Source: Patescibacteria group bacterium
GTDB lineage: Bacteria > Patescibacteriota > Minisyncoccia > Phycocordibacterales > UBA9973
DNA: 64,000 bases
Direction of reading: 5' to 3'
Assembly (NCBI GenBank): GCA_040389365.1
Contig: JAZKAB010000009.1
Coordinates: 44,816-108,815, forward strand
The notes under the pieces were generated by a model. The model was given only the letters and a program-made list of their open reading frames with translations. It was not told the origin of the DNA and searched no databases. Below are positions 15,323-54,393 of the stretch, in pieces; the stretch's first letter is position 1; each line of letters begins with the position of its first letter. The translations under genes and the position numbers were made by a program.

Positions 15323-15671
15323 ATTGGAATAGGAAGCATCTTTATTGCTGTATAAAGTGCGCTAGGGAGTATGTATAAGAAATTATATTAACGTCGCACA
15401 ATTAAGCCTTATGCGACAAGCTTTTTAATACAATCCACACAATCCACAGCCTATATATGCCTATCTATAAATATTATAAAAATAATATATATGAGATATT
15501 CTTGTGGAAAACTTTATACAGATCGTTAATATCATCGGATTTTGGCATCTATTTTTCTTCGTACTTTTGCTGGGAACAATCCTAGTTGCACTTTTCTACA
15601 TCGCGCTCTCATGGATGGCTTACGGTATCGCTCGCGCTTGGCGCATCGGTATCAAAGGGTCACGCTAAAAC

Positions 15672-29797: not shown

Positions 29798-30178
29798 ATG
29801 AAGACAATCATCATATCAACAGTTATCGCACTAGGAATACTATTCGGGGCATATCATATCGCCAAGCCTCAGAGCTTCGGAGCGGCAAACGCGCCTACGC
29901 TTCTTAAAAATGCTACCAATACCGGCGTAGCAGTAGGCGTTGCGTCTGCGGCTATCCTTACGACCAATACTGCCAGACAAAATGCAGTTATCGTGAATGG
30001 CGGATCGAACGCTGTATATCTCGGCTTCGGCACAGCGGCTGTAGTGGGCCAGGGCGTGTATCTCGCGCCAAGTGGAGGAACGTACCAGATAAATGATCAG
30101 AACCTCTACATAGGGGCAATCAACGGCATTACGAGCACTCAGACTTCGCAGGTAACAGCCTTGGAGATAAAGCAATAA
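29798..30178 (+). CDS. small secreted/membrane-anchored virion-associated protein
   Basis: A 126-aa product with an N-terminal hydrophobic helix. Confidence 0.35.
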   Translation: MKTIIISTVIALGILFGAYHIAKPQSFGAANAPTLLKNATNTGVAVGVASAAILTTNTARQNAVIVNGGSNAVYLGFGTAAVVGQGVYLAPSGGTYQINDQNLYIGAINGITSTQTSQVTALEIKQ

Positions 30179-30182
30179 TCCT

Positions 30183-31028
30183 ATGAGCATTCAGATCCAG
30201 CCACAGCAGAACTTCGCCATAGTGAGACAGCTTCCAGATCCTTCGGATGTGGCGACTTATTACGTGCGCTGCGAGATCCGCAATGCTCAGACGGACGCGA
30301 TCATTCCGGTAAGGAATCTTGCATACCTCAACATGACAGACAAGGGGTCCCGGCGTTTCATTGGCATATTCCAGGCTCCTGCTGACGTGCATGGCCAAGG
30401 GCTGCTGATATCGGTGAAGACAACCGTATATACGGACTCAGGCTATACGACAAAGTCGGATACCTACAACGAGGAGATGGAGACATATCTCGTATTGGAG
30501 CGATTCAATCCTAACGAGGTGATCCGCCAGATGGGTCCCGCTCTAGGGGGTGAGGATATCGACTATAAGAAGATTGAGAAAATGATCATCAAGGCAGTCA
30601 AGGAAAACTTGCCGGAAGAGCAGGAGGAGAAAACAGACGAAACTGTCATAAGGGCCATTGGGTCACTCGAAAAGAAACTAGCTGACATCTCTATATTGGT
30701 TGGAAAGATCGAAAGCCCCAAGGAGACAATTGAAAAGGCTCCTGAGACTAAGATTGAAGCTTCGCCTGACTTCTCTCCTGTAACAGACACAATCAAGGAA
30801 ACCAGCAAGAACGTTACAAAAGCGCTTGCGGGCGTATTGGACGTTGTGCAAAAGGTGCAAGAGACACTTTATTCAATGGAAGAAAAACATGTTGAAGACA
30901 AAAAGATAAAAAAGGCTATCGAGACAAAAGCGACTCACGACAAGAGAGCCGCTGAAATAGTTAATGGGCTAACAACTGCAGCGCCTGTAGATCATTCAGC
31001 GCGCGCAAAGGAGTTAATCAATGGGTAG
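30183..31028 (+). CDS. hypothetical structural protein with a C-terminal coiled coil
   Basis: A 281-aa ORF. Confidence 0.4.
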   Translation: MSIQIQPQQNFAIVRQLPDPSDVATYYVRCEIRNAQTDAIIPVRNLAYLNMTDKGSRRFIGIFQAPADVHGQGLLISVKTTVYTDSGYTTKSDTYNEEMETYLVLERFNPNEVIRQMGPALGGEDIDYKKIEKMIIKAVKENLPEEQEEKTDETVIRAIGSLEKKLADISILVGKIESPKETIEKAPETKIEASPDFSPVTDTIKETSKNVTKALAGVLDVVQKVQETLYSMEEKHVEDKKIKKAIETKATHDKRAAEIVNGLTTAAPVDHSARAKELING

Positions 31029-32985
31029 TTCAGGAACAATAGACAAGCTCTTCAAGGTCTTCACCGACGGCATTACCATACTGGGAAACGGAACTCGCAA
31101 CGATCCCTTGCGATCTGCGCTTTCCGGAGAGACGCCGCTTTCGTTCACTGGCGCCGTAGACGGCGTAAACCGAGTGTTCATAATGAACATTGCGCCAAGC
31201 CCAACCACTTCTGCCAAGATCTGGGACGGGCCGGCATATACGACTCAGGGCGTTGACTACGACATTTCTGGAACCACTCTGACATACCGCGTCGGACATG
31301 CTCCTTCGAGTCTTGACGGCCTGTCAGGCTTCGCAGGAATCGGAGTAACTGGCTCAAGCGTCATCACGATCGCCTCGATTGCTAGCATGCGACTGCTCGC
31401 GTCTGCCATATCAGGAGCGCTGTACTATGTTAGCGCAGCCGGGTATCAGGGCTTTTTCTACTATGACTCAACCGACACCACAAGCTCTGACAACACCGGA
31501 ACAGTGGTAGTATCGGGAACTTACCGGTTCAAGAGAGTGTTTACCGGCGACGTTTGCGCCACATGGTTCGGCGTAGTCGCAGACGCTGTGTTTGGCGCGT
31601 CAAACGTTGTTACAGGTACCGACAACACAACTGCAATGCAGCTTGCTGTTGACTCGCTTGTGAACTTTTCAGGAGGAACTCTTTTATTGCCGAAAGGAAA
31701 ATATCTGCAGAACGGAACAGTGTACATCAATCCATTGCTGACAAATCAGGTTCCCATAACAATCAAGGGAGATACTTCTAACAACCGCGTCGGTCAGGGC
31801 AACGGTTATGGCGGAACCGTCATTGCGAGAAACGTAACTGGAGACTTCTTCCGAGTGAACCTTACTAGTGGTGGAGTTGCTTTCGTTAATCCTGGATTCC
31901 AGTACTTTAGCTTTGCCGCTGAAAACCTATTCTTTGTCGGCAAGAAGGTAAATACTGGTGACAGTACAGTTCTAGGCATCAAGGCTTTCAACATGTTCAG
32001 AACAAGAAGCATTATGAAGAACATCACTTGTCAGCTTATCGACTATGGCGTGTATCAGGCTCCGACAGATGCTGACCTGAACCAGAACTACTGCGACCAG
32101 AGCACCTACAACAATATCTACTTCGAATCTCCGACACTGGGAGGACTATACCTGTATAACGCCGACGCGTGCGTGCTTAACAATATCAATTTCGAGCACG
32201 TTCTTCCGCAGTCAACATTCAACAAGGGCATAGTGATCGACCATGGAGACGGTGCCTCAATTAGAGGTGTGGTGAGCTGGACAAATACGACAGGCGTTAC
32301 TGTTCCTCCTGCGACGTCTGACAGCGCAATTATCTATCTCGATACGACCTCGAATGTATCTATCAACGGGATCCACGCTGAAAACGTGCTGCATACGCTA
32401 TGCGTTTTCTCGGTGAACAGCGCCACCACGACGACCGTCAAGAACGTGCAGATGCGCTTTGATGGAAACACCATGTTCAAGCTTACGAACGTGAAGGGAG
32501 TCTCTATCGAGGGATGGTCAATGCAGGCATCTCCTCTTTCTGGTTTTTACGATATACAGTACGTTGGCTCAGGCAACGAGAACGTGACCTACTCAAACGT
32601 GAACTTCAAGACCGGCTCGCCATCATTCGCTGAGAGAGCGATGGTCGTGAACACTACCGGCGGAGTGCGCGGCTTCTACAGCAATCCTTCCGACCTCGTT
32701 CCCATTGTCGCTACTGACGCCGACCTTGCGGCGGTTGGCGGAGCGATTTACCGACTTCCGGTAATTACCGCGAACCGCGTCATCACCCTTCCGAGCGCCA
32801 TCCATGCCCCAGGGCAGGAAATAGTGTTCTGGAACCTCAATACCAGCGGGTTCACATGGACGTTCCTTGCGTCGGCAGGAGCAGACATGAAAATACCTTC
32901 CGGAGCGACTATAACAGCATTTCCGAATAGCACCGTGGTAGTCGCCAAGGGATACGGAACCACTAACTGGCTAAAAACCAACTAA
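31021..32985 (+). CDS. tailspike / receptor-binding protein with a right-handed parallel beta-helix (pectate-lyase-like) fold
   Basis: Repetitive beta-helix rungs are rich in N, G, V, I and T (IKGDTSNNRVGQGNGYGGTVIARNVTG, NNINFEHV, NVSINGIHAENV). The product is 654 aa. Confidence 0.5.
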   Translation: MGSSGTIDKLFKVFTDGITILGNGTRNDPLRSALSGETPLSFTGAVDGVNRVFIMNIAPSPTTSAKIWDGPAYTTQGVDYDISGTTLTYRVGHAPSSLDGLSGFAGIGVTGSSVITIASIASMRLLASAISGALYYVSAAGYQGFFYYDSTDTTSSDNTGTVVVSGTYRFKRVFTGDVCATWFGVVADAVFGASNVVTGTDNTTAMQLAVDSLVNFSGGTLLLPKGKYLQNGTVYINPLLTNQVPITIKGDTSNNRVGQGNGYGGTVIARNVTGDFFRVNLTSGGVAFVNPGFQYFSFAAENLFFVGKKVNTGDSTVLGIKAFNMFRTRSIMKNITCQLIDYGVYQAPTDADLNQNYCDQSTYNNIYFESPTLGGLYLYNADACVLNNINFEHVLPQSTFNKGIVIDHGDGASIRGVVSWTNTTGVTVPPATSDSAIIYLDTTSNVSINGIHAENVLHTLCVFSVNSATTTTVKNVQMRFDGNTMFKLTNVKGVSIEGWSMQASPLSGFYDIQYVGSGNENVTYSNVNFKTGSPSFAERAMVVNTTGGVRGFYSNPSDLVPIVATDADLAAVGGAIYRLPVITANRVITLPSAIHAPGQEIVFWNLNTSGFTWTFLASAGADMKIPSGATITAFPNSTVVVAKGYGTTNWLKTN

Positions 32986-33001: not shown

Positions 33002-34255
33002 ATGAAAAAACTACAAAACAACCTATTAGTACTCGTCGCAAGCGCATTCTTTGTCGCCACTGTAGCCGTTCCTCTTACGCAGGCGCTTCTGCCTGTAAAT
33101 TATGCAGATGCTTCTGCCGTAGTGGTGCAGCAGGGAGGCACCGGACGGCAGTCGTTTCAGGTGTTCGCCCCGATCATCGGCGGAGCAACGCAGACTGCCC
33201 AGGTCGGTCAGGTCTCGCTGAATACCAGTGGATTCGTTTTCACTTCGAACGGGGCAGGAGTCGCTCCGACATTTCAGGCGGCAATAGGCGCGGTATCGAG
33301 CGTGAGCAATTCCGACAGCTCGATTACCATCTCTCCTACAACAGGAGCCGTTGTCGCGTCAATTAACGTGGCAAACCCTAAGACTTGGACAGGGGCGCAG
33401 ACCGTATCTACAGTACCTTTTACAATTTCAGGAAACCAATCAGCGGCTGCGTGGACTACTAGCGGAAAGCAGCTTGTAATTTCAGCAGCTACATTGACCG
33501 ACACCACAAGCTCTGGAACTGTAACAACCAATACTGCAAGTGCTTTTGCAATCCCAGTATTCGCTGCATCTTCCGCGACTACTTACACAAACGGTACAAC
33601 CTTATACATTGCAGGTGCACCAACACCAGGAACAAATGTAACGATAACAAATACTTACTCACTTCTTGTGAATAGCGGATTCAGTGTATTCGGCGGAGGG
33701 CTGACTACTGGCACAGGACTGGGAAGCAATGCCAACGCATATATTAGCGGCGGTACTACTCTTACTTCTTCAAGCAATGCAGCGATTCTCTTTGCAGGTG
33801 CTGGAACGGCTCAGTTTAGGTCTGTCTTTACCGGAAACATTGCAACGACAGCGCTGACAGCAAACACATCTTCCGCAAACATAATTATCGGAAGCGGAAT
33901 ACAGACTACTGCGGCAACTGGCACTCACGCGCTTCTCGCCAACATGGTGGTCAACCCTCTGGGAACGGTTACCAGCGGTGGAGCGACCGTAACGAATACT
34001 GCTTCTCTTTACATCAATGGAGCAGGCTCGGGCGGCACCAGCAACTACGCCTTCTGGGTGAACTCAGGAGCCTCGAAGTTCGGCGGCACTGTCCAATTGA
34101 TGAACTACACCGTGGCAACACTGCCTACGGGCGTACAGGGCATGACAGCCTACGTTACGGACGCGCTCACTCCGACATTCGGAACAACGGTAGTGGGAGG
34201 CGGAGCGGTCGTCATTCCAGTGTTCTATAACGGATCAGCGTGGGTATCGTACTAG
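33002..34255 (+). CDS. Thr/Ser/Gly/Ala-rich repetitive fibre/adhesin-like protein with a signal-peptide-like N-terminus
   Basis: The product starts MKKLQNNLLVLVASAFFVATVAVPLTQA. The rest is low-complexity TGT/SGG repeats. Confidence 0.45.
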   Translation: MKKLQNNLLVLVASAFFVATVAVPLTQALLPVNYADASAVVVQQGGTGRQSFQVFAPIIGGATQTAQVGQVSLNTSGFVFTSNGAGVAPTFQAAIGAVSSVSNSDSSITISPTTGAVVASINVANPKTWTGAQTVSTVPFTISGNQSAAAWTTSGKQLVISAATLTDTTSSGTVTTNTASAFAIPVFAASSATTYTNGTTLYIAGAPTPGTNVTITNTYSLLVNSGFSVFGGGLTTGTGLGSNANAYISGGTTLTSSSNAAILFAGAGTAQFRSVFTGNIATTALTANTSSANIIIGSGIQTTAATGTHALLANMVVNPLGTVTSGGATVTNTASLYINGAGSGGTSNYAFWVNSGASKFGGTVQLMNYTVATLPTGVQGMTAYVTDALTPTFGTTVVGGGAVVIPVFYNGSAWVSY

Positions 34256-34261
34256 TAACAG

Positions 34262-34507
34262 ATGCAAAAAACTTACACAGCAACATTCCATATATCGACC
34301 GTTATTACTGTCATTATTGCGCTTGTTTTGCTTGCGGTATTAACATTGTGTTCTAAATTTGAGCCTCACAAGAAAGTTAAAATATGTAAAGACTTCAAGA
34401 CATGGGTCAGCGCGCAGGAAGCGTTCAATGCTGATTCGGTCAAGTATTCTGGTCTCGATAGGGACGGTGACAAAAGAGTCTGCGAATCAATGAAAAAATC
34501 CCTATGA
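34262..34507 (+). CDS. small single-TM protein (holin-like candidate)
   Basis: An 81-aa product with one TM helix. Confidence 0.3.
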   Translation: MQKTYTATFHISTVITVIIALVLLAVLTLCSKFEPHKKVKICKDFKTWVSAQEAFNADSVKYSGLDRDGDKRVCESMKKSL

Positions 34508-34776
34508 ATGAAGAACAAAATCCACACAATCCAAAGGTAACGATCAAGACGCAGAACTTCTTCGAGGCGGTGCGCATCAACTGGTCCATCATCATGTTTA
34601 TCGTCGCGATCTGCTTTGCGATGATCACCGCATATACAAACCTCAAAGAGGTCCAGGCGCAGACCACTACAAATACCAGCGACATCAAGTCTCTCGACCA
34701 GCGACTCAGCGACACCGAAGGCGACATAAAGGCAATTCGAGAGGGTATCGACTATTTAAAACTAAGAGCTCAATAA
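34504..34776 (+). CDS. small TM + coiled-coil protein (holin/spanin-like candidate)
   Basis: A 90-aa product with a TM helix followed by a coiled coil. Its start and stop are coupled to neighbouring genes. Confidence 0.3.
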   Translation: MNEEQNPHNPKVTIKTQNFFEAVRINWSIIMFIVAICFAMITAYTNLKEVQAQTTTNTSDIKSLDQRLSDTEGDIKAIREGIDYLKLRAQ

Positions 34777-35687
34777 TGGAAAAGACAGAAAAGAAAATTA
34801 AAGACGGACTGCTGCCATTGCCTGCAGACACTCGCGATTATCCTCACGCAATGGTATTCGGCGCCTTGCCGCTCAAGGCGCTCCCTTCCCAGGACTTTGC
34901 GGTAATGGAGCCATTGGGCATCAAAGACCAGTCCGCCACAGGAGACGAGGACTTTTGCACGGCTTTCAGCTCATGTGCCGTGTCAGAAGACCAGGAGTCA
35001 GTACTGCTTAACCCCGAGTACATTTTTATGAAGAGCAAGATCCTTTCCGGCGATCCGGAGAAGTGGGGCCAGGATCTCAGAGCGATTTGCAAGGCGCACT
35101 GTAAGTTCGGCACGATCGAACAGCAATACTTTCCATACCTCAACAACCCGCAGGAGCGGGACTTTTACGTTGATCCCAAGAACTGGAGCGAGGAGCTGGA
35201 CATGCTGGCTTTCGAGCACCGCAAGAACTCATTCTTCGCAGTGGACGGTCCGCATGACACGTTCGACAACTTCCGCATGACGCTATGGCAGAACAAGGAT
35301 CAGTTCCAGTCAATAGTTACAGGGGCAAACTGGAAGCCGTCATGGACTTCGGCTCCGGGCGGAATAATTTCTGAAACTGAAACTGCTGAGGAGGGAAGTC
35401 CTCATGCTTTTAAGATCTACGGCCAGAAGACTATCGACGGCAAGATGTACCTTGTGGCGCAGCTTTCAAACGGCATAGATATCGGAGACATGGGCATTTT
35501 CTATTTCCCTCGATCGGTAGTGAACAAGGAGTTTGTATTCGGCGCCTTTATCTTTCATGACATGCCGAAGGATATGGCTGCGTATCACGCAGAAAATGGC
35601 ATCTCGGTCCATGACTCGCTTCTCAAGAAGTTCATCAAGGTCATAAACAACATATTTATCAGCTATTTTAAGAGCAAACTACTATGA
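34776..35687 (+). CDS. papain-like (C1-type) cysteine peptidase-fold protein
   Basis: DFCTAFSSCA resembles the papain motif CGSCWAFS, and HAFKIYGQ resembles the catalytic His strand. Confidence 0.4.
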   Translation: MEKTEKKIKDGLLPLPADTRDYPHAMVFGALPLKALPSQDFAVMEPLGIKDQSATGDEDFCTAFSSCAVSEDQESVLLNPEYIFMKSKILSGDPEKWGQDLRAICKAHCKFGTIEQQYFPYLNNPQERDFYVDPKNWSEELDMLAFEHRKNSFFAVDGPHDTFDNFRMTLWQNKDQFQSIVTGANWKPSWTSAPGGIISETETAEEGSPHAFKIYGQKTIDGKMYLVAQLSNGIDIGDMGIFYFPRSVVNKEFVFGAFIFHDMPKDMAAYHAENGISVHDSLLKKFIKVINNIFISYFKSKLL

Positions 35688-36340
35688 ATGGAGACGAACT
35701 GGCAACGCAATTTAGAAACCTCGTAGACGACGACTTCGATACTACCCACATGTATCAGCTGTTTTCTCAGGCGAAGAACAATATCGAGCGAACATACAAG
35801 CCCGAGGTTCTCAAGAAGCTCGACCAGACTCAGACTTCAAGCGTTGGCGACTCGTACAATACCGCAAAGGCCCTGCCCGCAGACTTCCGCACATTCTGCA
35901 AGGTGTATCTTGGCCGGATTGAATACTTGTTCGTAACCTTCGAGCAGTCTGTAATGTATCGAAACGCTCCGCGCAAGATATTCGCCAATTATGGAGCGAA
36001 TACTTTTTCGCCTACAGGCCCGGTAAGCGTTGCCGACACATGGAGCATATTTTACATACCGAAGACGGAAGACTTTACCGAAGACAATGCCGACGAAGTG
36101 GTGTGCCTGTGGCCTTCTGAATTTCATCCGCTTATCCCATACGAGGCGGCGAAGATTTATCAGGCAAACATTGACGCCGACGCCATCGCATTTCGCATGT
36201 CAGCGGCTCAGGAAAAGGAATATGACCGTCTTCTCAATGCATTCATTCACTGGGATCACGACATCAAGCTCGCCGCGATGAATGGCCAGACAGGATTTGC
36301 AGATCAGGGAGATTATCCGATTGACATAGGAATGCTTTAG
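35684..36340 (+). CDS. hypothetical structural protein
   Basis: A 218-aa ORF. Confidence 0.4.
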   Translation: MNGDELATQFRNLVDDDFDTTHMYQLFSQAKNNIERTYKPEVLKKLDQTQTSSVGDSYNTAKALPADFRTFCKVYLGRIEYLFVTFEQSVMYRNAPRKIFANYGANTFSPTGPVSVADTWSIFYIPKTEDFTEDNADEVVCLWPSEFHPLIPYEAAKIYQANIDADAIAFRMSAAQEKEYDRLLNAFIHWDHDIKLAAMNGQTGFADQGDYPIDIGML

Positions 36341-36343
36341 CTT

Positions 36344-38299
36344 ATGGCTGACATTGTCCAAAAAAAGAACAGACTCGTTGAAACCTACAAGTACGGAGTG
36401 ATTTCGACGCTTGAGCCTATCACTATTCCTCCAGGAGCTGCTCAGGATTCACTTAACTGGCTCACTATGGGCGACCATATCGAGCTTCGGCGCGGTTTCG
36501 AGTACATCGGCACTGAATCGGTAAACGAGGGCGTAGGGAAGGCCACAGGGCTCCGCAAGGTGGTGCTGGCAAGCGGCGCAGAGCGCATATTCGGCTCTTA
36601 CGGAAAGAAGGCCAAATACTTTGACGACGTTACCACGAACGAATGGGTTGAGATCGGAACCGACATTCTCGGCAATAATGTCGTTGATGCCGACGGCATA
36701 GGGAAAGAGTCAGTCTCTTTCGAAGAATACGTAGGGCTTGCGGGAAATCAGCTTTTCATCAACTCAACCAATATTGGCGGCTACTACAAGGTAATGGTCG
36801 CAAATCCTACAGACTACACCAACATGTATGACAGCGCCAAGAACAAGAAGGGGCTCATCAAGATCGATAACAACCGAACGCTGCTATGGCAGACGCTAAA
36901 AGACCAAACAGGCCTTAACGGGTCATATATCGATACTCAGGCATACGTGACAGTCGCATCGGAAAGCATTGGCACTGGCGACGGAGCAGCGGTGACTTTC
37001 ACCGGCACACTTGCTTTCAGGGCTGCTAATCCTGTCAATACTGCTTTCGGCATCAGCGTTACCGATGGGGTGGAGACATTCACTGACGATTTCAACGGCA
37101 TCCTTATAGGGTCCCTTGGAGGCACTGGTACGATTAACTACACCACGGGCGCAATATCAGTGACCTTTGCTACCGCTCCTGCAGGCGCGGCAAACATTGA
37201 CGCTTCATACCAGCACGAGAACTCCAACACTCACGGCATCACCGACTTTACCAAGTCGCCTACCCGCCTTGCAGGCGAAGGATTCATTATTCGACAGGAT
37301 GCGGGAGGCGGAAAGTTTCAGACAGTGAAGTCTTACAACAACGTCTATTACTGCCTTCATATAAAGCGCTCATGGGCTCTTTCAATATCATCTGACGACT
37401 CAAGCGTGAACAACCAGCCGTATCGCCACAAGGTGGGCATCCCGAACGACCGCGCGGCCGTGGAAACAGGGGAGGGCGTCTATTATATCGACGAGACTGA
37501 CGAGAACGACACTCGTATTCGGCTGCTCACATACGACACTCAGGGATCAACCCAGGTGCTGCCGGTCCCTATTTCAAACAAGATAAACCTCAACAGGTTC
37601 ACTTGGGACAACGGCGCTTGCGGCAAGTACGGAGACTTCATCTACTTCGGCGGACGCGAAAAGACGTCGCTCGTGAACAATCGAACGCTCGTATACAACA
37701 AGCTCTACAGCTCATGGGACATTCTCGACTACTCGATCACCTGCAGCGATACCTATTTGGGAGCGCTCATCGCAGGCGACGGGTACAGCGACAACTTCAT
37801 GACGCTGTTTTCCGGCTTGGACGATATCGGATCGCCAATCTTCAACTACTGGGTAAGCGGAGAGGATCAGCTTGGACTTGACGGCCTCAAGAAGTCAAAG
37901 AAATTCAAGGTTCGCGGGGACATCGGTCCAGACCAGTCCATAAAACTGTCAGTGTCACTTGATAATGGTCCCTTCGTAGAGCTTCGAACCACTTCTGACA
38001 TTGCCGCTTCGACAGAAGACCGCGTTATCCATGCAATCGAGGGCGACGGGACATACGTTGACCGAGGAAATCGCGTCACTGTCGGTCCGAGAACTCTGGG
38101 CCGCGGAGAAGTTGGAGGCGGTGGAGACGGCATTGAGGCTTATCGATTCGAGAGAGAAATAGCCTTTCCTTTTGACAAGTTCGAGACAGCAACGCTGAAA
38201 GTGGAGGCAACTCGACTCGGATGGGCATCGCTCTCGCTTCACGGGTTCATGGACGTGCGGTTCAAAGGGGTGAAGACTCCGAGAAAGTATCGCGGATAA
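36344..38299 (+). CDS. large virion structural protein (tail/baseplate-like)
   Basis: A 651-aa product. Confidence 0.45.
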   Translation: MADIVQKKNRLVETYKYGVISTLEPITIPPGAAQDSLNWLTMGDHIELRRGFEYIGTESVNEGVGKATGLRKVVLASGAERIFGSYGKKAKYFDDVTTNEWVEIGTDILGNNVVDADGIGKESVSFEEYVGLAGNQLFINSTNIGGYYKVMVANPTDYTNMYDSAKNKKGLIKIDNNRTLLWQTLKDQTGLNGSYIDTQAYVTVASESIGTGDGAAVTFTGTLAFRAANPVNTAFGISVTDGVETFTDDFNGILIGSLGGTGTINYTTGAISVTFATAPAGAANIDASYQHENSNTHGITDFTKSPTRLAGEGFIIRQDAGGGKFQTVKSYNNVYYCLHIKRSWALSISSDDSSVNNQPYRHKVGIPNDRAAVETGEGVYYIDETDENDTRIRLLTYDTQGSTQVLPVPISNKINLNRFTWDNGACGKYGDFIYFGGREKTSLVNNRTLVYNKLYSSWDILDYSITCSDTYLGALIAGDGYSDNFMTLFSGLDDIGSPIFNYWVSGEDQLGLDGLKKSKKFKVRGDIGPDQSIKLSVSLDNGPFVELRTTSDIAASTEDRVIHAIEGDGTYVDRGNRVTVGPRTLGRGEVGGGGDGIEAYRFEREIAFPFDKFETATLKVEATRLGWASLSLHGFMDVRFKGVKTPRKYRG

Positions 38300-47510: not shown

Positions 47511-47672
47511 ATGACCCTAAAGACACCAGTAAAAGAAATATCGGAAAAGCTTGGCGTCAGCACCCAGGCTGTTTACCTGTGGAAGGCCGGCAAGTCTTTG
47601 CCTTCTTCCAAGAACCTGCTAAAGCTTGCGGAAATGGAAGGAACGACAGTGGACAGCCTTCTAAATAGCTAG
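47511..47672 (+). CDS. Cro/XRE-like helix-turn-helix regulator (53 aa)
   Basis: MTLKTPVKEISEKLGVSTQAVYLWKAGKSLPSSKNLLKLAEMEG is a classic Cro/CI-type HTH. It is not in the ORF track because it is shorter than 60 aa. Confidence 0.5.
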   Translation: MTLKTPVKEISEKLGVSTQAVYLWKAGKSLPSSKNLLKLAEMEGTTVDSLLNS

Positions 47673-47682
47673 CCTCTCAAGT

Positions 47683-49143
47683 GTGTACACTTTGTACATG
47701 CTTATATTAGACATTTTCGATCGCTTCTTCGGAAGAAATGGCCAGCAGGTTATAGACCCCGAGGCAGTATCAGTAAAAAAGTACCCGCTCAGCGCCCATC
47801 TCAACGATCCCGACTCCCGCGACGTTTCCTATCCGTTCGTTGCCGGATCGATCGCGCCTTCGTTTCCAGCGCAATACAATACGGACGTATCTCACATGAC
47901 CCGTCTATGGCAGGGATATTTGGGTACCTGCGTGGCGCACTGCTACGAATTCATCAAGCGGCTTCTTGATTTCAATGAGACTGGTGCCGAGACAATATAT
48001 TCCCGCCGCTTTCTCTATGTTCTAACCCGTCGCTTCACGAATGCGGTGAATACCGACTCTGAGCAGAACCAGGGGCTTTCTCCTCGTGATGCTGCAAAGA
48101 TACTCGCTACGGCAGGAATTGCTAAGGATAGCGGCCAGGATGACAACAGTCTTCCTCATAGTGCTTACGTGAACAGTTATGTTGTTACTGATGCCATGAG
48201 AAGCGAGGCGGCACTTTACCGATCCGGAGGATTCGCGTTTCCTATCATCGACTCCAGCGTCCTAAAGAAGGCGATCATGCAGAACAAGGCGGTAGGAGTG
48301 ACTATCGGGATAGACTGGTCCAAAGTCTCGCCTGACGGCACCGTGCGCCCTCCTGCGGTCCTTGCAGGCTTCCATGAGGTTGCCCTGTACGGATGGGAGA
48401 CTGTCAGCGGAAAGGAGCGCTTCATCGCCCGAAACTGGTGGCCAGAATTGCCAAACCTTTACATAAACAGCGAAGACATTGAAAAGGTAGTATACGACTC
48501 GATCGTCTTTACGGACATTCCGAACGATCTTCTTTTGCGAGCAAAGCAGCGGCAGTACGTGTTCCTCACCGATCTCAAGCAGGGAATAGTGAGCGACGCG
48601 GTAGTCCAGCTGCAGAAGTGCCTGAAAGAATACGGCCTTTTCTCGGCGGCATTCAGCAGGTCTTTCGGCCCCGCTACGCTGCAGGCAGTGAAGGATTTCC
48701 AGAAACTGAAAGGCCTGACAGCTGACGGCGCATTAGGGCCGAAGAGTCGCGCCGCTCTCAACGAGTCGGCAGGGAATACGCTTTCAAAGTCAAGGCTCGA
48801 CTTGTGGTGCGAGGCGGCGAAGAATATGGACGGGGCAAAGTCCTATCTCAACAATCCTGGCAATATCCGCTGCAACGCGATAATGAACAAGAACGCGATA
48901 AGCGTAAGCAACAACGGCTTCTGCATGTTCCCTACATACGAGGCAGGGTACAAGGCCCTGCGCGATATGTTTATCCGAGCAGCTACCATAGGCACTGCAA
49001 ACTATCAGCCGACAATGACCCTGTATCAGTTCTATGCGAAATATGCTCCTTCTAACGACGGCAACGATCCGAACCATTATGCCGAATATGTGGCGACCCA
49101 TATTGGAGTATCACCTAGCACGATGATCAAGGATCTGGTATAA
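47683..49143 (+). CDS. putative endolysin: papain-like cysteine peptidase + PG_binding_1 peptidoglycan-binding domain + unknown C-terminal domain
   Basis: WQGYLGTCVAHCYEF (Q...C) and GFHEVALYGWE (His strand) match the papain pattern. DAVVQLQKCLKEYGLFSAAFSRSFGPATLQAVKDFQKLKGLTADGALGPKSRAAL is a PG_binding_1 repeat. Confidence 0.55.
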   Translation: MYTLYMLILDIFDRFFGRNGQQVIDPEAVSVKKYPLSAHLNDPDSRDVSYPFVAGSIAPSFPAQYNTDVSHMTRLWQGYLGTCVAHCYEFIKRLLDFNETGAETIYSRRFLYVLTRRFTNAVNTDSEQNQGLSPRDAAKILATAGIAKDSGQDDNSLPHSAYVNSYVVTDAMRSEAALYRSGGFAFPIIDSSVLKKAIMQNKAVGVTIGIDWSKVSPDGTVRPPAVLAGFHEVALYGWETVSGKERFIARNWWPELPNLYINSEDIEKVVYDSIVFTDIPNDLLLRAKQRQYVFLTDLKQGIVSDAVVQLQKCLKEYGLFSAAFSRSFGPATLQAVKDFQKLKGLTADGALGPKSRAALNESAGNTLSKSRLDLWCEAAKNMDGAKSYLNNPGNIRCNAIMNKNAISVSNNGFCMFPTYEAGYKALRDMFIRAATIGTANYQPTMTLYQFYAKYAPSNDGNDPNHYAEYVATHIGVSPSTMIKDLV

Positions 49144-49884: not shown

Positions 49885-50715
49885 CTAAATGTATTTTTTA
49901 GCCAGTCGCTTGAACTCGTCCGGCAGTAGGGATGTATACATTTGAGTCGATATGATGGTCCGGTGCCTCAGCACTTCCTTGATGTCATTGAGGTGTGCCC
50001 CGTCCTTGAGCATCTTGTGCGCTTTCCCGTGCCTGAACATGTGCGGATGGACATTGTGACCTATTCCGGCATTCGTCGCTACTGAGGCGACCCAGCGCTC
50101 TACAGAGCGGGTAGTGATGCGCTCGCCCTTGCGGTTCGTGAACAGCGCGGGGTGCTCGTCAAGGCAAAGCTTGGTCCCTATGTACCGCATCAAGAGCTTG
50201 TGAGATTTTCCGCTCCACATGATCCAATCCATATGCCTGTTTTTCTTGGTGACGATCTTGGCGAAGTGGCGAGTGTTCTTTATATCGAGCACGTCCAGGT
50301 CGCACAATTCAGATACTCGTATGCCCGTACTCCACAATAGGTTGATGACAAGCTTCTTCTGCAGGGAATAGTACTCCCATTCGCTCAGCGACTTGTCCAT
50401 CATCCTGAACTCCTGCTCCGTAATGAAAGAGACGGGCTCAGGGGTAAATTTTGGCCGCTTGATCAGCTTCGGGTTTACCTCGGTGCGGTAGTATGAAAAG
50501 AAGTCTTTCAGTATGTTTACATAATAGACTATGGTTCTCGGCTTGAACGGGAGGGAAGCGATGAAGCTGGTAACGTCGCTTTGCGCTATCTTTGTCATCT
50601 CCTTTGAGCAGTGCTTCTCGAATGCTGCCAAGCACGGCGCATAGGAAATAGAGGCGGGAACCGCGTAGCTCCTTTTCCAATCCAGATATTCAGTTATTGC
50701 TCTTGATATATGCAT
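49885..50715 (-). CDS. tyrosine recombinase / phage integrase (XerD-like)
   Basis: It has the C-terminal catalytic motifs HMFRHGKAHKML...LRHRTIISTQMYT (R-H-R-Y). The ORF is open to 50814, and the start at MHISRAITEY is preferred. Confidence 0.75.
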   Translation of the reverse strand: MHISRAITEYLDWKRSYAVPASISYAPCLAAFEKHCSKEMTKIAQSDVTSFIASLPFKPRTIVYYVNILKDFFSYYRTEVNPKLIKRPKFTPEPVSFITEQEFRMMDKSLSEWEYYSLQKKLVINLLWSTGIRVSELCDLDVLDIKNTRHFAKIVTKKNRHMDWIMWSGKSHKLLMRYIGTKLCLDEHPALFTNRKGERITTRSVERWVASVATNAGIGHNVHPHMFRHGKAHKMLKDGAHLNDIKEVLRHRTIISTQMYTSLLPDEFKRLAKKYI

Positions 50716-50943
50716 AAAACACAAAACCGCGGGGAAAAACCGCGGTTCGTGCTGTTGCAACATAGCCCAAAAGAGGGCCACGATCAGTATAGCAAAATCC
50801 ATTGTTTTCCCCATACCCTTGCGGGCACGTCCTTTGCAGGCAACGGCGTTATTCGGTTATGTTCGCATATTAACCTTATATTAGATTATGTCAAGTAGGG
50901 AAGCATCTTAATACTTTTATGCTCAAGTTCTATACTTTTAAAC

Positions 50944-51156
50944 ATGAACACATATTCAGCAACTCAACAGTCAAACCTGGTGGCGATCGCGGGAGTAATA
51001 GCCCTCATTCTCAACCACTTCCATATCAACATCGGCAGCGATGACATCATGCTCCTGCTCGGCTCAGGCCTTGCGGTAATCGGCGTCGTTACTAACTGGG
51101 TGCACAGATACCAGAAAGGCGACCTTACTCTCGGAGGATTTAGAAAAGGGTACTAG
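50944..51156 (+). CDS. small membrane protein
   Basis: A 70-aa product with two TM helices. Confidence 0.35.
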   Translation: MNTYSATQQSNLVAIAGVIALILNHFHINIGSDDIMLLLGSGLAVIGVVTNWVHRYQKGDLTLGGFRKGY

Positions 51157-51164
51157 TCACTTAC

Positions 51165-51234
51165 TGCGGTTTAGTATAATGGTAGTACGCCGGGCTCATA
51201 TCCCGGAAGCGCTGTTCGATTCAGTCATCCGCAA
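51165..51234 (+). tRNA. tRNA-Met (anticodon CAU)-like, with two stem mismatches and a short variable region
   Basis: The fold has D-loop AATGGTA, anticodon stem CCGGG/CCCGG with three G:C pairs, loop CTCATAT and T-loop TTCGATT. Mismatches occur at 6:67 (T-T) and 49:65 (C-C), and the length is 70 nt. Confidence 0.5.
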
Positions 51235-51240
51235 CAATAA

Positions 51241-52316: not shown

Positions 52317-53576
52317 TTATATAGGCTCAACTATATCCATGGTTTTTAGATCAGGTTTTTTTTCAAGCATAGCGATTAAACATTTTCCTATATGATATCC
52401 AAGATTTACGGGAACTGCATTTCCGATTTGCTTATATTGAGATGATGTTGAACCTTGAAAATCCCAATTGTCAGGGAACGACTGTATACGCGCATATTCA
52501 CGAACCGTAAGAGGACGAGTTTCTTCTGGGTGACATCTTTCCGTTTGCTTTTGAGCGGGCGCACAGGTTAAAGTCAAACTTGGTTCATCCCAAGATAGCC
52601 TTCGTGCCATTCCTGTCTTGCCTCCTCCTAAATAAAAGCTTCCTTGCATATATTCTTTCTGAAGATCTATTGGAAGATCTCTCCAGTATCCCCCTTGTGG
52701 GATCAGGCTCAATATTTCCTTCTTTCTTTTAGGATATTGTTGCCCTGCTGATATTGGTACATTTTGCAAAGCCTCTCTTAAGCTAACTGTGTAATCTTGT
52801 TCTTTTGGAAAAAGTATAGGTAGGTCTAGGTCGTTGCGCACCCCTAAAATTACCAATCTTTCGCGTTTTTGTGCAACATCTAAGTATTGTGATCTAAGTA
52901 CTTTATAGGCAACTTTATATCCTAGCTCCTTTAGAACAGAGATAATTACCGGCAATGTTTTTCCTTCATCATGAGTCAATAAGCCTTTAACATTTTCACC
53001 CATAAAAATTTTAGGGCGTATTTCTTTTACACATCTTGCGAGTTCGAAAAACAACGTTCCGCGAGCGTCATTAAACCCCATTTTTTTCCCAGCTTCACTA
53101 AAAGCTTGGCAAGGAAACCCACCTTCAACAATATCTGCCTTATATCCGCTGAAATCAAAATCTCTTACATCGGCTCTAACCGCATTCCATTCCGGATGGT
53201 TCTTGTTTAGTGTAGAAACAGAATCCTTATCCAAATCAACCAGCAATGCATGCTTTAAACCAGCATTTTCAAAACCGAGTGCTGTTCCACCTGCACCTGC
53301 AAAAAGTTCCACCACCGTATAGCCGGTTTTTTTATTTGACTTAAGTACTTTGAATTTATTCCCATTGCTTTTTCCTGCAATTTTTTCCTGCAATTTTTTA
53401 ATTTCAGAAAAACTAAAAAGCCTATGATTTTGATCAGATCGAGTAGCTTTAATTAACCCTTTTTTTTCCCACCTTCTAATAGTATCGGTTGAAACGTCTA
53501 TTGCTTCTGCTGCCTCATGAACATTTAATAGCTTATCCATGGCTATAGTATATATTAGTACCCTTGCTATATGCAA
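52317..53576 (-). CDS. DNA (cytosine-5)-methyltransferase with an N-terminal helix-turn-helix domain
   Basis: It has motif I (ELFAGAGGTALGFENAG), motif IV (GGFPCQAFS), ENV, and an N-terminal HTH (LNVHEAAEAIDVSTDTIRRWEKKGLI). Confidence 0.8.
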   Translation of the reverse strand: MHIARVLIYTIAMDKLLNVHEAAEAIDVSTDTIRRWEKKGLIKATRSDQNHRLFSFSEIKKLQEKIAGKSNGNKFKVLKSNKKTGYTVVELFAGAGGTALGFENAGLKHALLVDLDKDSVSTLNKNHPEWNAVRADVRDFDFSGYKADIVEGGFPCQAFSEAGKKMGFNDARGTLFFELARCVKEIRPKIFMGENVKGLLTHDEGKTLPVIISVLKELGYKVAYKVLRSQYLDVAQKRERLVILGVRNDLDLPILFPKEQDYTVSLREALQNVPISAGQQYPKRKKEILSLIPQGGYWRDLPIDLQKEYMQGSFYLGGGKTGMARRLSWDEPSLTLTCAPAQKQTERCHPEETRPLTVREYARIQSFPDNWDFQGSTSSQYKQIGNAVPVNLGYHIGKCLIAMLEKKPDLKTMDIVEPI

Positions 53577-53581
53577 GGGTA

Positions 53582-54298
53582 CTAATATATTTTATCAAAT
53601 AATGCTTTGTAGGAATCAGATTTAATTAATTGGGTTGGCGATTTCTTCAGCGCAATGCATGTAATTAATATTAAATTCATATAAATTTTTTCCAAAGCAT
53701 TTGGGTCTCCCGTAGCTAGTTCATAAAAGCTTTTCCCATCAATAACCCTTATCTTTTCATTTATTGGACGCCTAGATTTTGAATTATTATCTGAAGGAGT
53801 AAAAGAATTATTATAAACTTTTTTATTTTTAGGTATTATTTCAACATAATATCCTATATATCCTTCATATGTAGTATTTAGTAAACCATTGAGATTGTCG
53901 TAAATAGCAGTTTTATGATTACCTTTAGTTGTATTATGCTTATTCTTAACCTCAGCTATTATTTTCTTTTTAGTATTCTTAACATCTATTATCTTCCCTG
54001 TCCCAAGGTTTTCCCAGCCCTTAAATGAGCCAATAACATTTTGGTGAAACTCACCTAGTGCATTCTGAAGGCTTTTTTGAATTTGACGTGCTTTTTCTTG
54101 TTCAATCCAATCGGAAATTGAAATGTTTTTTAAAAGGCTTTCGAATAAGGCAGAAAATGGGTCAACGGAGTTTTTATAGAAATCCGCATCGCTTTTTTCA
54201 AGAGATCTTTTAGCAACTGAAATAACCGCATTTACATGTTTTGTTAAATCTTCATTCGATATAAATGGTAATTCTGGCACTATAATCTTACTGTTCAT
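53582..54298 (-). CDS. putative type II restriction endonuclease (partner of the C5 methyltransferase)
   Basis: A 238-aa AT-rich gene lies immediately upstream of the MTase gene in the same operon. It has no diagnostic motif, and the call is by context. Confidence 0.45.
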   Translation of the reverse strand: MNSKIIVPELPFISNEDLTKHVNAVISVAKRSLEKSDADFYKNSVDPFSALFESLLKNISISDWIEQEKARQIQKSLQNALGEFHQNVIGSFKGWENLGTGKIIDVKNTKKKIIAEVKNKHNTTKGNHKTAIYDNLNGLLNTTYEGYIGYYVEIIPKNKKVYNNSFTPSDNNSKSRRPINEKIRVIDGKSFYELATGDPNALEKIYMNLILITCIALKKSPTQLIKSDSYKALFDKIY

Positions 54299-54393
54299 GT
54301 TGTTATGATATCTTAATCTTGTCGAAATTACCATCTCTTAAATTAGGCTATAATTTATCTTTTCTTGATACAATACTACAACATTTTACTTCT

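Follow-up and report, generated by a model that had tools for sequence, protein, structure and literature searches.

Why a phage should carry a cassette with the anatomy of a lysis module in the middle of its tail genes is the question raised by a stretch of 64,000 nucleotides from a Patescibacteria chromosome (contig JAZKAB010000009.1, positions 44,816 to 108,815), here called the window. A ~36-kb SU10-like podovirus prophage is integrated in this chromosome and spans ~15.4-51.7 kb of the window. Within it, three open reading frames (ORFs) on the plus strand occupy positions 34262-35687: 34262-34507 (81 amino acids, aa), 34504-34776 (90 aa) and 34776-35687 (303 aa). A preliminary description, made from the sequence alone, had singled out these ORFs, with the same lengths, as resembling a lysis cassette, and their anatomy is indeed of that kind. 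It had further proposed that the largest product may be a virion-associated peptidase used at entry. Giving it about an even chance of being right, we favour a different reading, in which the three ORFs would form an auxiliary lysis module acting from within, a portable combination of one or two membrane partners and a C1A cysteine peptidase.

The peptidase and its two small neighbours

The 303-aa protein (34776-35687) can be assigned with confidence, on the strength of its predicted structure and of its family profile, to the C1A (papain) family of peptidases, with xylellain as the closest type. The AlphaFold2 model (pLDDT 94.8, pTM 0.92) has the two-lobe papain fold, in which the helix formed by residues 61-74 begins at Cys61. 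A Foldseek search of the Protein Data Bank (PDB) with this model gave xylellain (PDB 3OIS) as the best match, with an E-value of 3.8e-12. Next in rank were C1A enzymes of mites, plants and animals, among them Der p 1 and the cathepsins B, K, L and S. The family profile finds the same entry over nearly its full length (E 5.4e-12). A non-peptidase fold, which would have contradicted the preliminary description, was not obtained: structure prediction yielded a papain-fold C1A enzyme both for this protein and for the second papain-like enzyme of the prophage, described below.

The papain-like signatures noticed earlier, DFCTAFSSC (aa 59-67) and HAFKIYGQ (aa 210-217), contain Cys61 and His210, which together with Gln52 are invariant in an alignment of 37 homologues, Gln229 being nearly so. 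When the family profile is aligned to xylellain, these four residues fall on the papain positions Gln19, Cys25, His159 and Asn175, and in xylellain itself the counterparts of the first three are a Gln, the Cys within 'GSC' and the His within 'GHA'. The third catalytic position is occupied by Gln229 (in QLSNG), as opposed to the Asn of NSWG in xylellain; some homologues keep NSWG. Taken alone, the 303-aa sequence has no match in Pfam (E<0.1) or PHROGs and none in GenBank phages (tblastn), and phmmer against the PDB returns cathepsin S only, with an E-value of 1.4. Among the 37 homologues, 14 match PF00112 (Peptidase_C1), the best with an E-value of 4.4e-9. Because the protein itself has no Pfam match, its C1A membership rests on the profile and the fold and not on the hidden Markov model score of a single sequence. 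The first search returned 99 homologues, and an exhaustive one 557 cluster representatives at E<=1e-30.

The protein contains no hydrophobic segment on the Kyte-Doolittle scale and its N-terminus is hydrophilic. The C-terminal helix (aa ~282-302) is amphipathic, with a hydrophobic moment of 0.5-0.6. A pro-region at the N-terminus was considered and set aside; this part is treated as mature fold because the alignment covers xylellain from residue 29 onwards only. The enzyme would be made in the cytoplasm in its mature form, having neither a signal peptide nor a pro-region.

The two small proteins each contain one strong hydrophobic segment, as the preliminary description had noticed. The 81-aa protein (34262-34507) has a single transmembrane (TM) segment at aa 11-29 (Kyte-Doolittle 19-mer maximum 2.87), followed by an Excalibur-like Cys...LDRDGDKRVCE domain. 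The full motif is CKDF..AQ..LDRDGDKRVCE, and its score against PF05901 (Excalibur; E 0.0068, 17.2 bits) lies below the gathering cut-off of 22. The protein matches phrog_5854 (E 3.7e-7), and one of the related cassettes (L006) holds a protein of the same architecture. The 90-aa protein (34504-34776), the candidate membrane partner of the peptidase, has a short N-terminus, a TM segment at aa 25-43 (19-mer maximum 2.24) and a C-terminal helix with a coiled-coil heptad pattern that was reached by only one of 2000 composition shuffles. All its family matches are below threshold (DUF2730, 0.0074; DivIC; FtsL_2), and the same is true of the matches of its relatives, which include XhlA (0.008-0.013), Phage_holin_1 (0.027), DUF2570 (0.023) and the Rz-like spanin family phrog_739 (0.0012). 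Both ORFs fit the generic description of a holin in being small, having at least one TM segment and a charged C-terminus, and lying beside a lysin. Pairwise BLAST comparisons among the TM/coiled-coil partner proteins of related phages show weak similarity, and among GenBank phages the small TM proteins find matches in Microbacterium phages only, limited to the Excalibur motif.

Stop and start codons overlap or abut all the way from the 81-aa ORF to the adaptor gene that follows the peptidase (ATGA at 34504 and 35684, TAATG at 34776), and there is no intergenic gap between the cassette and the neighbouring structural genes. A scan of 28-47.9 kb for promoters and terminators found such sites to be no more numerous than in shuffled sequence, and thus gave no sign that the cassette is a separate transcription unit.

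Domain fusions and the second enzyme of the prophage

A clue to the substrate comes from the relatives of the peptidase that carry additional domains. A census of 140 representatives at 50% identity contains 31 proteins of 390 aa or more, and 13 of these have at their C-terminus a domain named here NNPG. The C-terminal tails of others among the long relatives, read by motif only, are SLT-like (ES...GxxQ), CHAP-like (GDII..GHVGIV) or amidase-like, and three homologues carry LysM. In all, roughly one relative in five bears a fused wall-lytic or wall-binding domain. Because these fusions produce the multi-domain architecture of peptidoglycan lysins, they give good, if indirect, support to a wall-directed role for the 303-type peptidase. 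We infer that its most likely targets are peptide links in the wall, either in the peptidoglycan stems or in the cross-bridges.

The second papain-like enzyme, encoded at 47683-49143 on the plus strand, was described earlier as having a peptidoglycan-binding domain and as looking like the true endolysin. The first statement is accurate: the 486-aa protein consists of a C1A peptidase (aa ~35-290), a PG_binding_1 domain (305-359) and an NNPG domain (~375-486). Xylellain is its best sequence-profile and fold match, as it is for the 303-aa enzyme, and this paralogue keeps an Asn (Asn251) at the papain Asn175 position. The second statement has gained weight from the neighbouring genes. A 70-aa protein with two predicted TM segments (50944-51156, plus strand), the holin candidate of the prophage, lies downstream, separated from the endolysin gene by that of a tyrosine integrase (49885-50814, minus strand; PF00589, E 2.9e-26). 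The 70-aa protein has no match in Pfam, PHROGs or GenBank phages. Its homologues are found directly after a 486-type gene (L015; tblastn 7e-22) and in the 303-type cassettes of L006 (1e-12) and L013 (6e-12), and a related two-TM protein follows the 486-type gene in L016, L019, L020 and L021 as well. As a two-TM holin candidate is located downstream of the 486-type enzyme in six of six contexts, with the integrase gene intervening in the window, the 486-aa enzyme is taken to be the main endolysin. The relative DRR213774_2914 possesses both C1A genes (L001 and L015), and its 486-type gene is directly followed by that of a 72-aa two-TM protein.

The NNPG domain (48805-49143 in the window; ~110 aa) is characterized by the invariant residues N391-P392-G393-N394. 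It has no sequence match in Pfam or the PDB, and the only PHROGs that it matches are annotated as endolysin or tape measure. The domain occurs at the C-terminus of both types of C1A lysin, on its own, and within large ORFs downstream of the nozzle gene that are probably virion proteins. Besides the window, it is seen in L013, L018, L022, L023, L072, L076 and P0122; the large post-nozzle ORFs containing it are those of L072 and L076 and, more weakly, L018, and in L023 it is part of an 865-aa protein. NNPG is probably a wall-lytic or wall-binding domain that has not been described before.

Exit, entry and other readings

As an auxiliary lysis factor, the 303-aa enzyme would act at the end of infection, because it would be unable to cross the membrane unaided. 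Gating, tethering or release of the peptidase at the membrane would fall to the two single-pass proteins, of which one has an Excalibur-like ectodomain and the other a coiled coil; the closest analogy is a holin or the accessory protein XhlA. The main part in lysis would be played by the endolysin-holin pair (47683-49143 and 50944-51156), which the module would assist. Its position in the tail block would be explained by its association with fibre-like genes, which it appears to follow wherever those are, and which in this lineage lie before the adaptor gene. The preliminary description had placed the cassette between fibre genes. This is correct for the upstream side, where fibre-like genes are located at 31021-32985 and at 33002-34255 (plus strand), the latter encoding a 417-aa protein with a Sec-signal-like N-terminus that represents the constant type of upstream neighbour of the module. 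On the downstream side are instead the SU10-type head-to-tail adaptor (35684-36340, plus strand; PF24175, E 5e-8), whose start overlaps the peptidase stop, and directly after it the nozzle-like protein of 651 aa (36344-38299).

The distribution of the peptidase was surveyed in 80 IMG/VR loci, out of 240 relatives, which were fetched through the nozzle-like protein and thus independently of the peptidase. In all 80 the adaptor gene is followed by the nozzle-like gene. The gene directly before the adaptor encodes a 303-type C1A peptidase in 21 loci, a member of a second, divergent C1A subfamily in 8, a g281-like protein in 17, the capsid protein (MCP) in 18 and something else in 16. A C1A peptidase is thus present before the adaptor in 29 loci and absent from that slot in 51 (64%), and small TM ORFs are found just upstream of the peptidase in 26 of the 29. 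Members of the second subfamily (L032, L033, L040, L041, L046, L053, L062 and L074) are 328-400 aa long, have the motifs DTxMCVSFS and HEVAIxGY with invariant Q, C, H and D, and are also preceded by small TM ORFs; their profile matches cathepsin K (1.9e-7) and, in hhalign, the first family (91.5%). By this survey and the contexts described next, the peptidase is an accessory found in the company of fibre-like genes and small membrane proteins, and not a fixed part of the tail. LysM-bearing versions of the peptidase sit in the same pre-adaptor slot. In the phage with such a version, a post-nozzle protein of 820 aa contains an NNPG-like stretch and could, judging from that stretch, serve as the entry lysin.

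A second set of 19 contexts was fetched through homology to the peptidase or its relatives. The gene directly upstream of the peptidase encodes a small single-TM protein in 13 of them; two more have a weaker hydrophobic segment in this position, and in another two the TM protein is two genes upstream. Counted as small TM/coiled-coil ORFs no more than two genes upstream, partners are seen in about 16 of the 19. The partner mostly has the form of a TM segment followed by a coiled coil, or of a coiled coil followed by a C-terminal TM segment. A fibre-like gene whose product has a hydrophobic N-terminus precedes the module in most contexts; the hydrophobic N-terminus is missing in L011 and L026, and the check covered the contexts other than L013 and L017.

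In four contexts (L006, L013, L017 and L024), which represent other phage backbones, the pair is not followed by an SU10-like adaptor and forms a tight block with other lysins and a two-TM holin candidate, the latter within 0-2 kb. The order of the products is TM-Excalibur, TM-coiled coil, C1A peptidase, CHAP-like, two-TM and secreted SLT-like in L006; TM, TM-coiled coil, C1A peptidase with NNPG, homing HNH genes and two-TM in L013; TM-coiled coil, C1A peptidase with an SLT-like tail and two-TM in L017; and coiled coil-TM, TM, C1A peptidase, M23 (E 2.4e-8) and two-TM in L024. Of these two-TM proteins, the ones in L006, L013 and L024 fall into the two related families whose members are also found after the 486-type enzyme; the similarity of the L017 protein is weak. 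In L013 (11283-13885) the lysis region is interrupted by four HNH-type endonuclease ORFs, located between the C1A-NNPG lysin and the holin candidate.

The best surviving alternative, which we nevertheless consider unlikely, is the one put forward in the preliminary description, that the 303-aa peptidase resides in the tail or neck of the virion and opens the wall locally at DNA injection, leaving 47683-49143 as the true endolysin. Several observations weigh against an exit role or speak for this alternative. A complete endolysin and a holin candidate are already present elsewhere, both in the window phage and in DRR213774_2914, so that a second exit enzyme looks redundant, and where a phage has two lysins the additional one is usually virion-associated; here there are two wall enzymes in one genome, of which one is paired with a holin candidate. 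The peptidase gene precedes and abuts the adaptor gene in every SU10-like locus fetched through the peptidase (n=13), as it does in 29 of the 80 surveyed loci, and it is translationally coupled to the adaptor gene by the overlap of stop and start codons. The window protein has no wall-binding domain, and docking to the virion could be provided by the amphipathic helix at its C-terminus, which is conserved. In L025 and L026 the peptidase lies among structural genes, and in L025 it is found between capsid and neck-sized genes without a small TM partner; the 388-aa protein of L026 and the 146-aa protein of L025 are not detectable as adaptors. Neither the 81-aa nor the 90-aa protein has an above-threshold match to any holin, spanin or XhlA family in Pfam or PHROGs. 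Because hydrophobic N-termini are common in the neighbouring fibre-like proteins as well, a TM segment alone is a weak argument in this region. Finally, another reading of the blocks in L006 and L024 is that a C1A enzyme associated with the tail is followed by a separate lysis cassette.

The distribution argues in the other direction. The slot is empty of a peptidase in 64% of the phages that build the same adaptor-nozzle tail. Where the peptidase is present, small membrane proteins are nearly always alongside, and a virion enzyme would not need them. No structural attachment domain is present in the peptidase, versions with LysM are found in the same slot, and NNPG in the large post-nozzle ORFs of related phages, which is the position of a tail or ejection protein, could supply the entry function. 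With the membrane partners, the blocks in which the peptidase is located with lysins and holin candidates elsewhere, the LysM versions, the non-core distribution and the candidate entry enzymes encoded elsewhere all favouring an exit role, entry is the less likely of the two main options. The remark that such an enzyme would be especially relevant if the host were an epibiont attacking another cell envelope finds no support: the prophage is integrated in a Patescibacteria chromosome, and the envelope at stake is that bacterium's own.

Quite unlikely, in our estimate, is a protease directed at envelope proteins, which would cut S-layer or wall-anchored proteins in the last step of lysis, or else process the fibre-like proteins with signals whose genes lie just upstream. 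C1A enzymes normally cut ordinary L-peptide bonds, and the genes that the module follows are, in most of the contexts examined, fibre-like ones whose products have Sec-signal-like N-termini. A protein substrate is possible by analogy with Cwp84 of Clostridioides difficile, which is among the structural matches of the 486-aa model. Cwp84 is a cellular, wall-anchored C1A protease with anchoring repeats that cuts the S-layer precursor. It is thus an S-layer maturation protease and not a phage lysis factor, and its anchoring domains differ from those of the window enzymes. The NNPG fusions and the SLT-, CHAP- and amidase-like ones read by motif, moreover, represent the classic two-enzyme architecture of peptidoglycan lysins, and no S-layer gene was identified in the window. 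More doubtful still is the specific proposal that the peptidase and its single-pass coiled-coil partner form a membrane-tethered device, which would strip a protein layer (S-layer or wall-anchored proteins) from the envelope of the ultra-small Patescibacteria cell, as a final step of lysis in its own right, or release the signal-anchored fibre-like proteins encoded next to it on the upstream side. If true, phages would have here a new class of lysis or assembly factor, going beyond another peptidoglycan endopeptidase.

A role unrelated to wall degradation, either as a morphogenetic protease maturing head or tail proteins or as a membrane module expressed in lysogeny (e.g. for superinfection exclusion), is highly improbable: it is suggested by the location inside a structural operon, by the L025 peptidase right after the capsid gene and by the resemblance of the TM-Excalibur protein to small prophage surface proteins, but in the window the peptidase is not beside portal, scaffold or capsid genes, an own promoter is not detectable in the 28-47.9 kb scan, and the morphogenetic protease was set aside in view of the fusions to wall-lytic and wall-binding domains and because most of the related phages that share the capsid and tail genes lack the peptidase.

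Related systems, the prophage and the lysin repertoire

Xylellain of Xylella fastidiosa, the best profile and fold match of both window enzymes, shares with them an N-terminal GxxP..D.RDFS stretch and the Gln-Cys-His-Asn/Gln positions. The identity is 19-22%, and the 303-aa protein differs in having a Gln at the Asn175 position, in being encoded in a phage cassette with membrane proteins and in having relatives fused to wall-lytic or wall-binding domains. The acquisition of xylellain-type C1A genes by tailed phages is on record, without a function for the phage copies (PMC10380794). The papain-fold domains described in phage lysins are CHAP (C51), NlpC/P60 (C40) and Amidase_5, which cut peptidoglycan peptides or the MurNAc-L-Ala bond, often in proteins that also have a binding domain and another lytic domain (PMC10318531; bioRxiv 10.1101/2025.01.22.634383). 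These are Cys-His enzymes of the same clan as the window enzymes, but of other families. No paper that connects endolysins with PF00112 or Peptidase_C1 came up in a literature search, and a search on lysis by Patescibacteria phages found nothing beyond one unrelated phage.

The logic of the proposed module resembles that of the prophage PBSX of Bacillus subtilis. The accessory protein XhlA of PBSX has a coiled coil. In that system XhlA, a membrane protein acting with the holin, the two-TM holin XhlB and the signal-less wall hydrolase XlyA are all required for lysis (PMC5589764). The window has a comparable small membrane protein, two-TM holin candidate and signal-less enzyme. The likeness is limited in that the matches between relatives of the 90-aa protein and XhlA are weak and all below threshold, the TM segment of the 90-aa protein is on the N-terminal side, the window enzyme is a peptidase and not an amidase, and the holin candidate is 15 kb away.

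Second wall enzymes encoded among the structural genes of short-tailed phages are also familiar. The proteins gp13 of phi29 and gp16 of T7 are virion-associated peptidoglycan hydrolases. Such enzymes, that of SU10 included, either belong to the ejection or tail-tip proteins, with genes located behind those of the tail, or are parts of larger structural proteins. In SU10, the nearest structurally studied tail type, the entry enzyme is the transglycosylase ejection protein gp20, which is encoded after the tail genes (PMC9509320). The window peptidase, in contrast, is a protein on its own with genes for membrane proteins beside it, and most related tails lack it.

The 303-aa protein itself is annotated on a 113-kb contig of a Patescibacteria metagenome-assembled genome. 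The prophage has cellular genes on both sides: those for transketolase, aldolase, ribosomal protein L25, a release factor and an S41 peptidase on the left, and those of a restriction-modification system and a P-type ATPase on the right. Between them lie the genes for the terminase, an SU10-type portal, the SU10-type adaptor, the nozzle-like 651-aa protein, a 1722-aa polyvalent protein and the integrase, as well as a tRNA-Met (51165-51235). Free phage contigs related to the prophage measure 36-41 kb. The sequence TAACGTCGCACAAT, a direct repeat of 14 bp, is present at 15389 and 51656, in both cases intergenic, against a chance expectation of ~0.1, and may be the attachment core.

Several other features of the region deserve mention. 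Sec-signal-like hydrophobic N-termini are found on fibre-like or structural-block proteins of the window (29798-30178, 33002-34255 and 38337-40235; for example MKKLQNNLLVLVASAFFVATVAVPLTQALL) and of L001, L004, L006-L010, L012, L024 and L025, which is odd for tail fibres expected to assemble in the cytoplasm. The polyvalent protein (41511-46679) contains a PARP/ADP-ribosyltransferase-like stretch at aa 327-439 (PF00644, 6.5e-5, and PF18760, 1.8e-3, both below cut-off) and, going by its sequence, may be an ejected effector. The low-GC (~41%) spot between its gene and the endolysin gene (46685-47672) contains minus-strand ORFs for small membrane proteins of 62 aa (two TM segments) and 78 aa (one), a zinc-ribbon ORF of 55 aa and a 53-aa HTH_3 regulator that lies immediately before the endolysin gene; the spot may be a moron or regulatory insert. 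The restriction-modification pair to the right of the prophage (52317-54334) comprises an Eco47II-type endonuclease and a C5-cytosine methylase fused to a MerR helix-turn-helix domain, and lies in an island of 34% GC.

The link of these phages to Patescibacteria is provided by this prophage and by the binning of related contigs in metagenome-assembled genomes. Two whole-phage-sized contigs of 38-40 kb, L005 (JAFCGI010000010.1) and L006 (JAZJXR010000025.1), are binned in genomes labelled Pacearchaeota archaeon and Patescibacteria; the Pacearchaeota label is probably a binning artefact.

The catalogue of phage lysins by catalytic domain guides both the annotation of genomes and the design of enzybiotics. 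A full C1A domain of the xylellain type appears to recur as a wall-directed enzyme of Patescibacteria-linked phages, in a large family with two paralogues per genome, a constant small membrane partner and fusions to known lytic domains. On the reading favoured here, the module would help to break the wall at exit with an enzyme family that is not described as a phage lysin in the literature searched. If the activity is confirmed, it would add a new catalytic family to the endolysin repertoire and explain why standard annotation, in which the 303-aa protein has neither a Pfam nor a PHROG match, finds no lysin here. It would also provide a first handle on phage lysis of bacteria of the candidate phyla radiation, whose envelope is poorly known.

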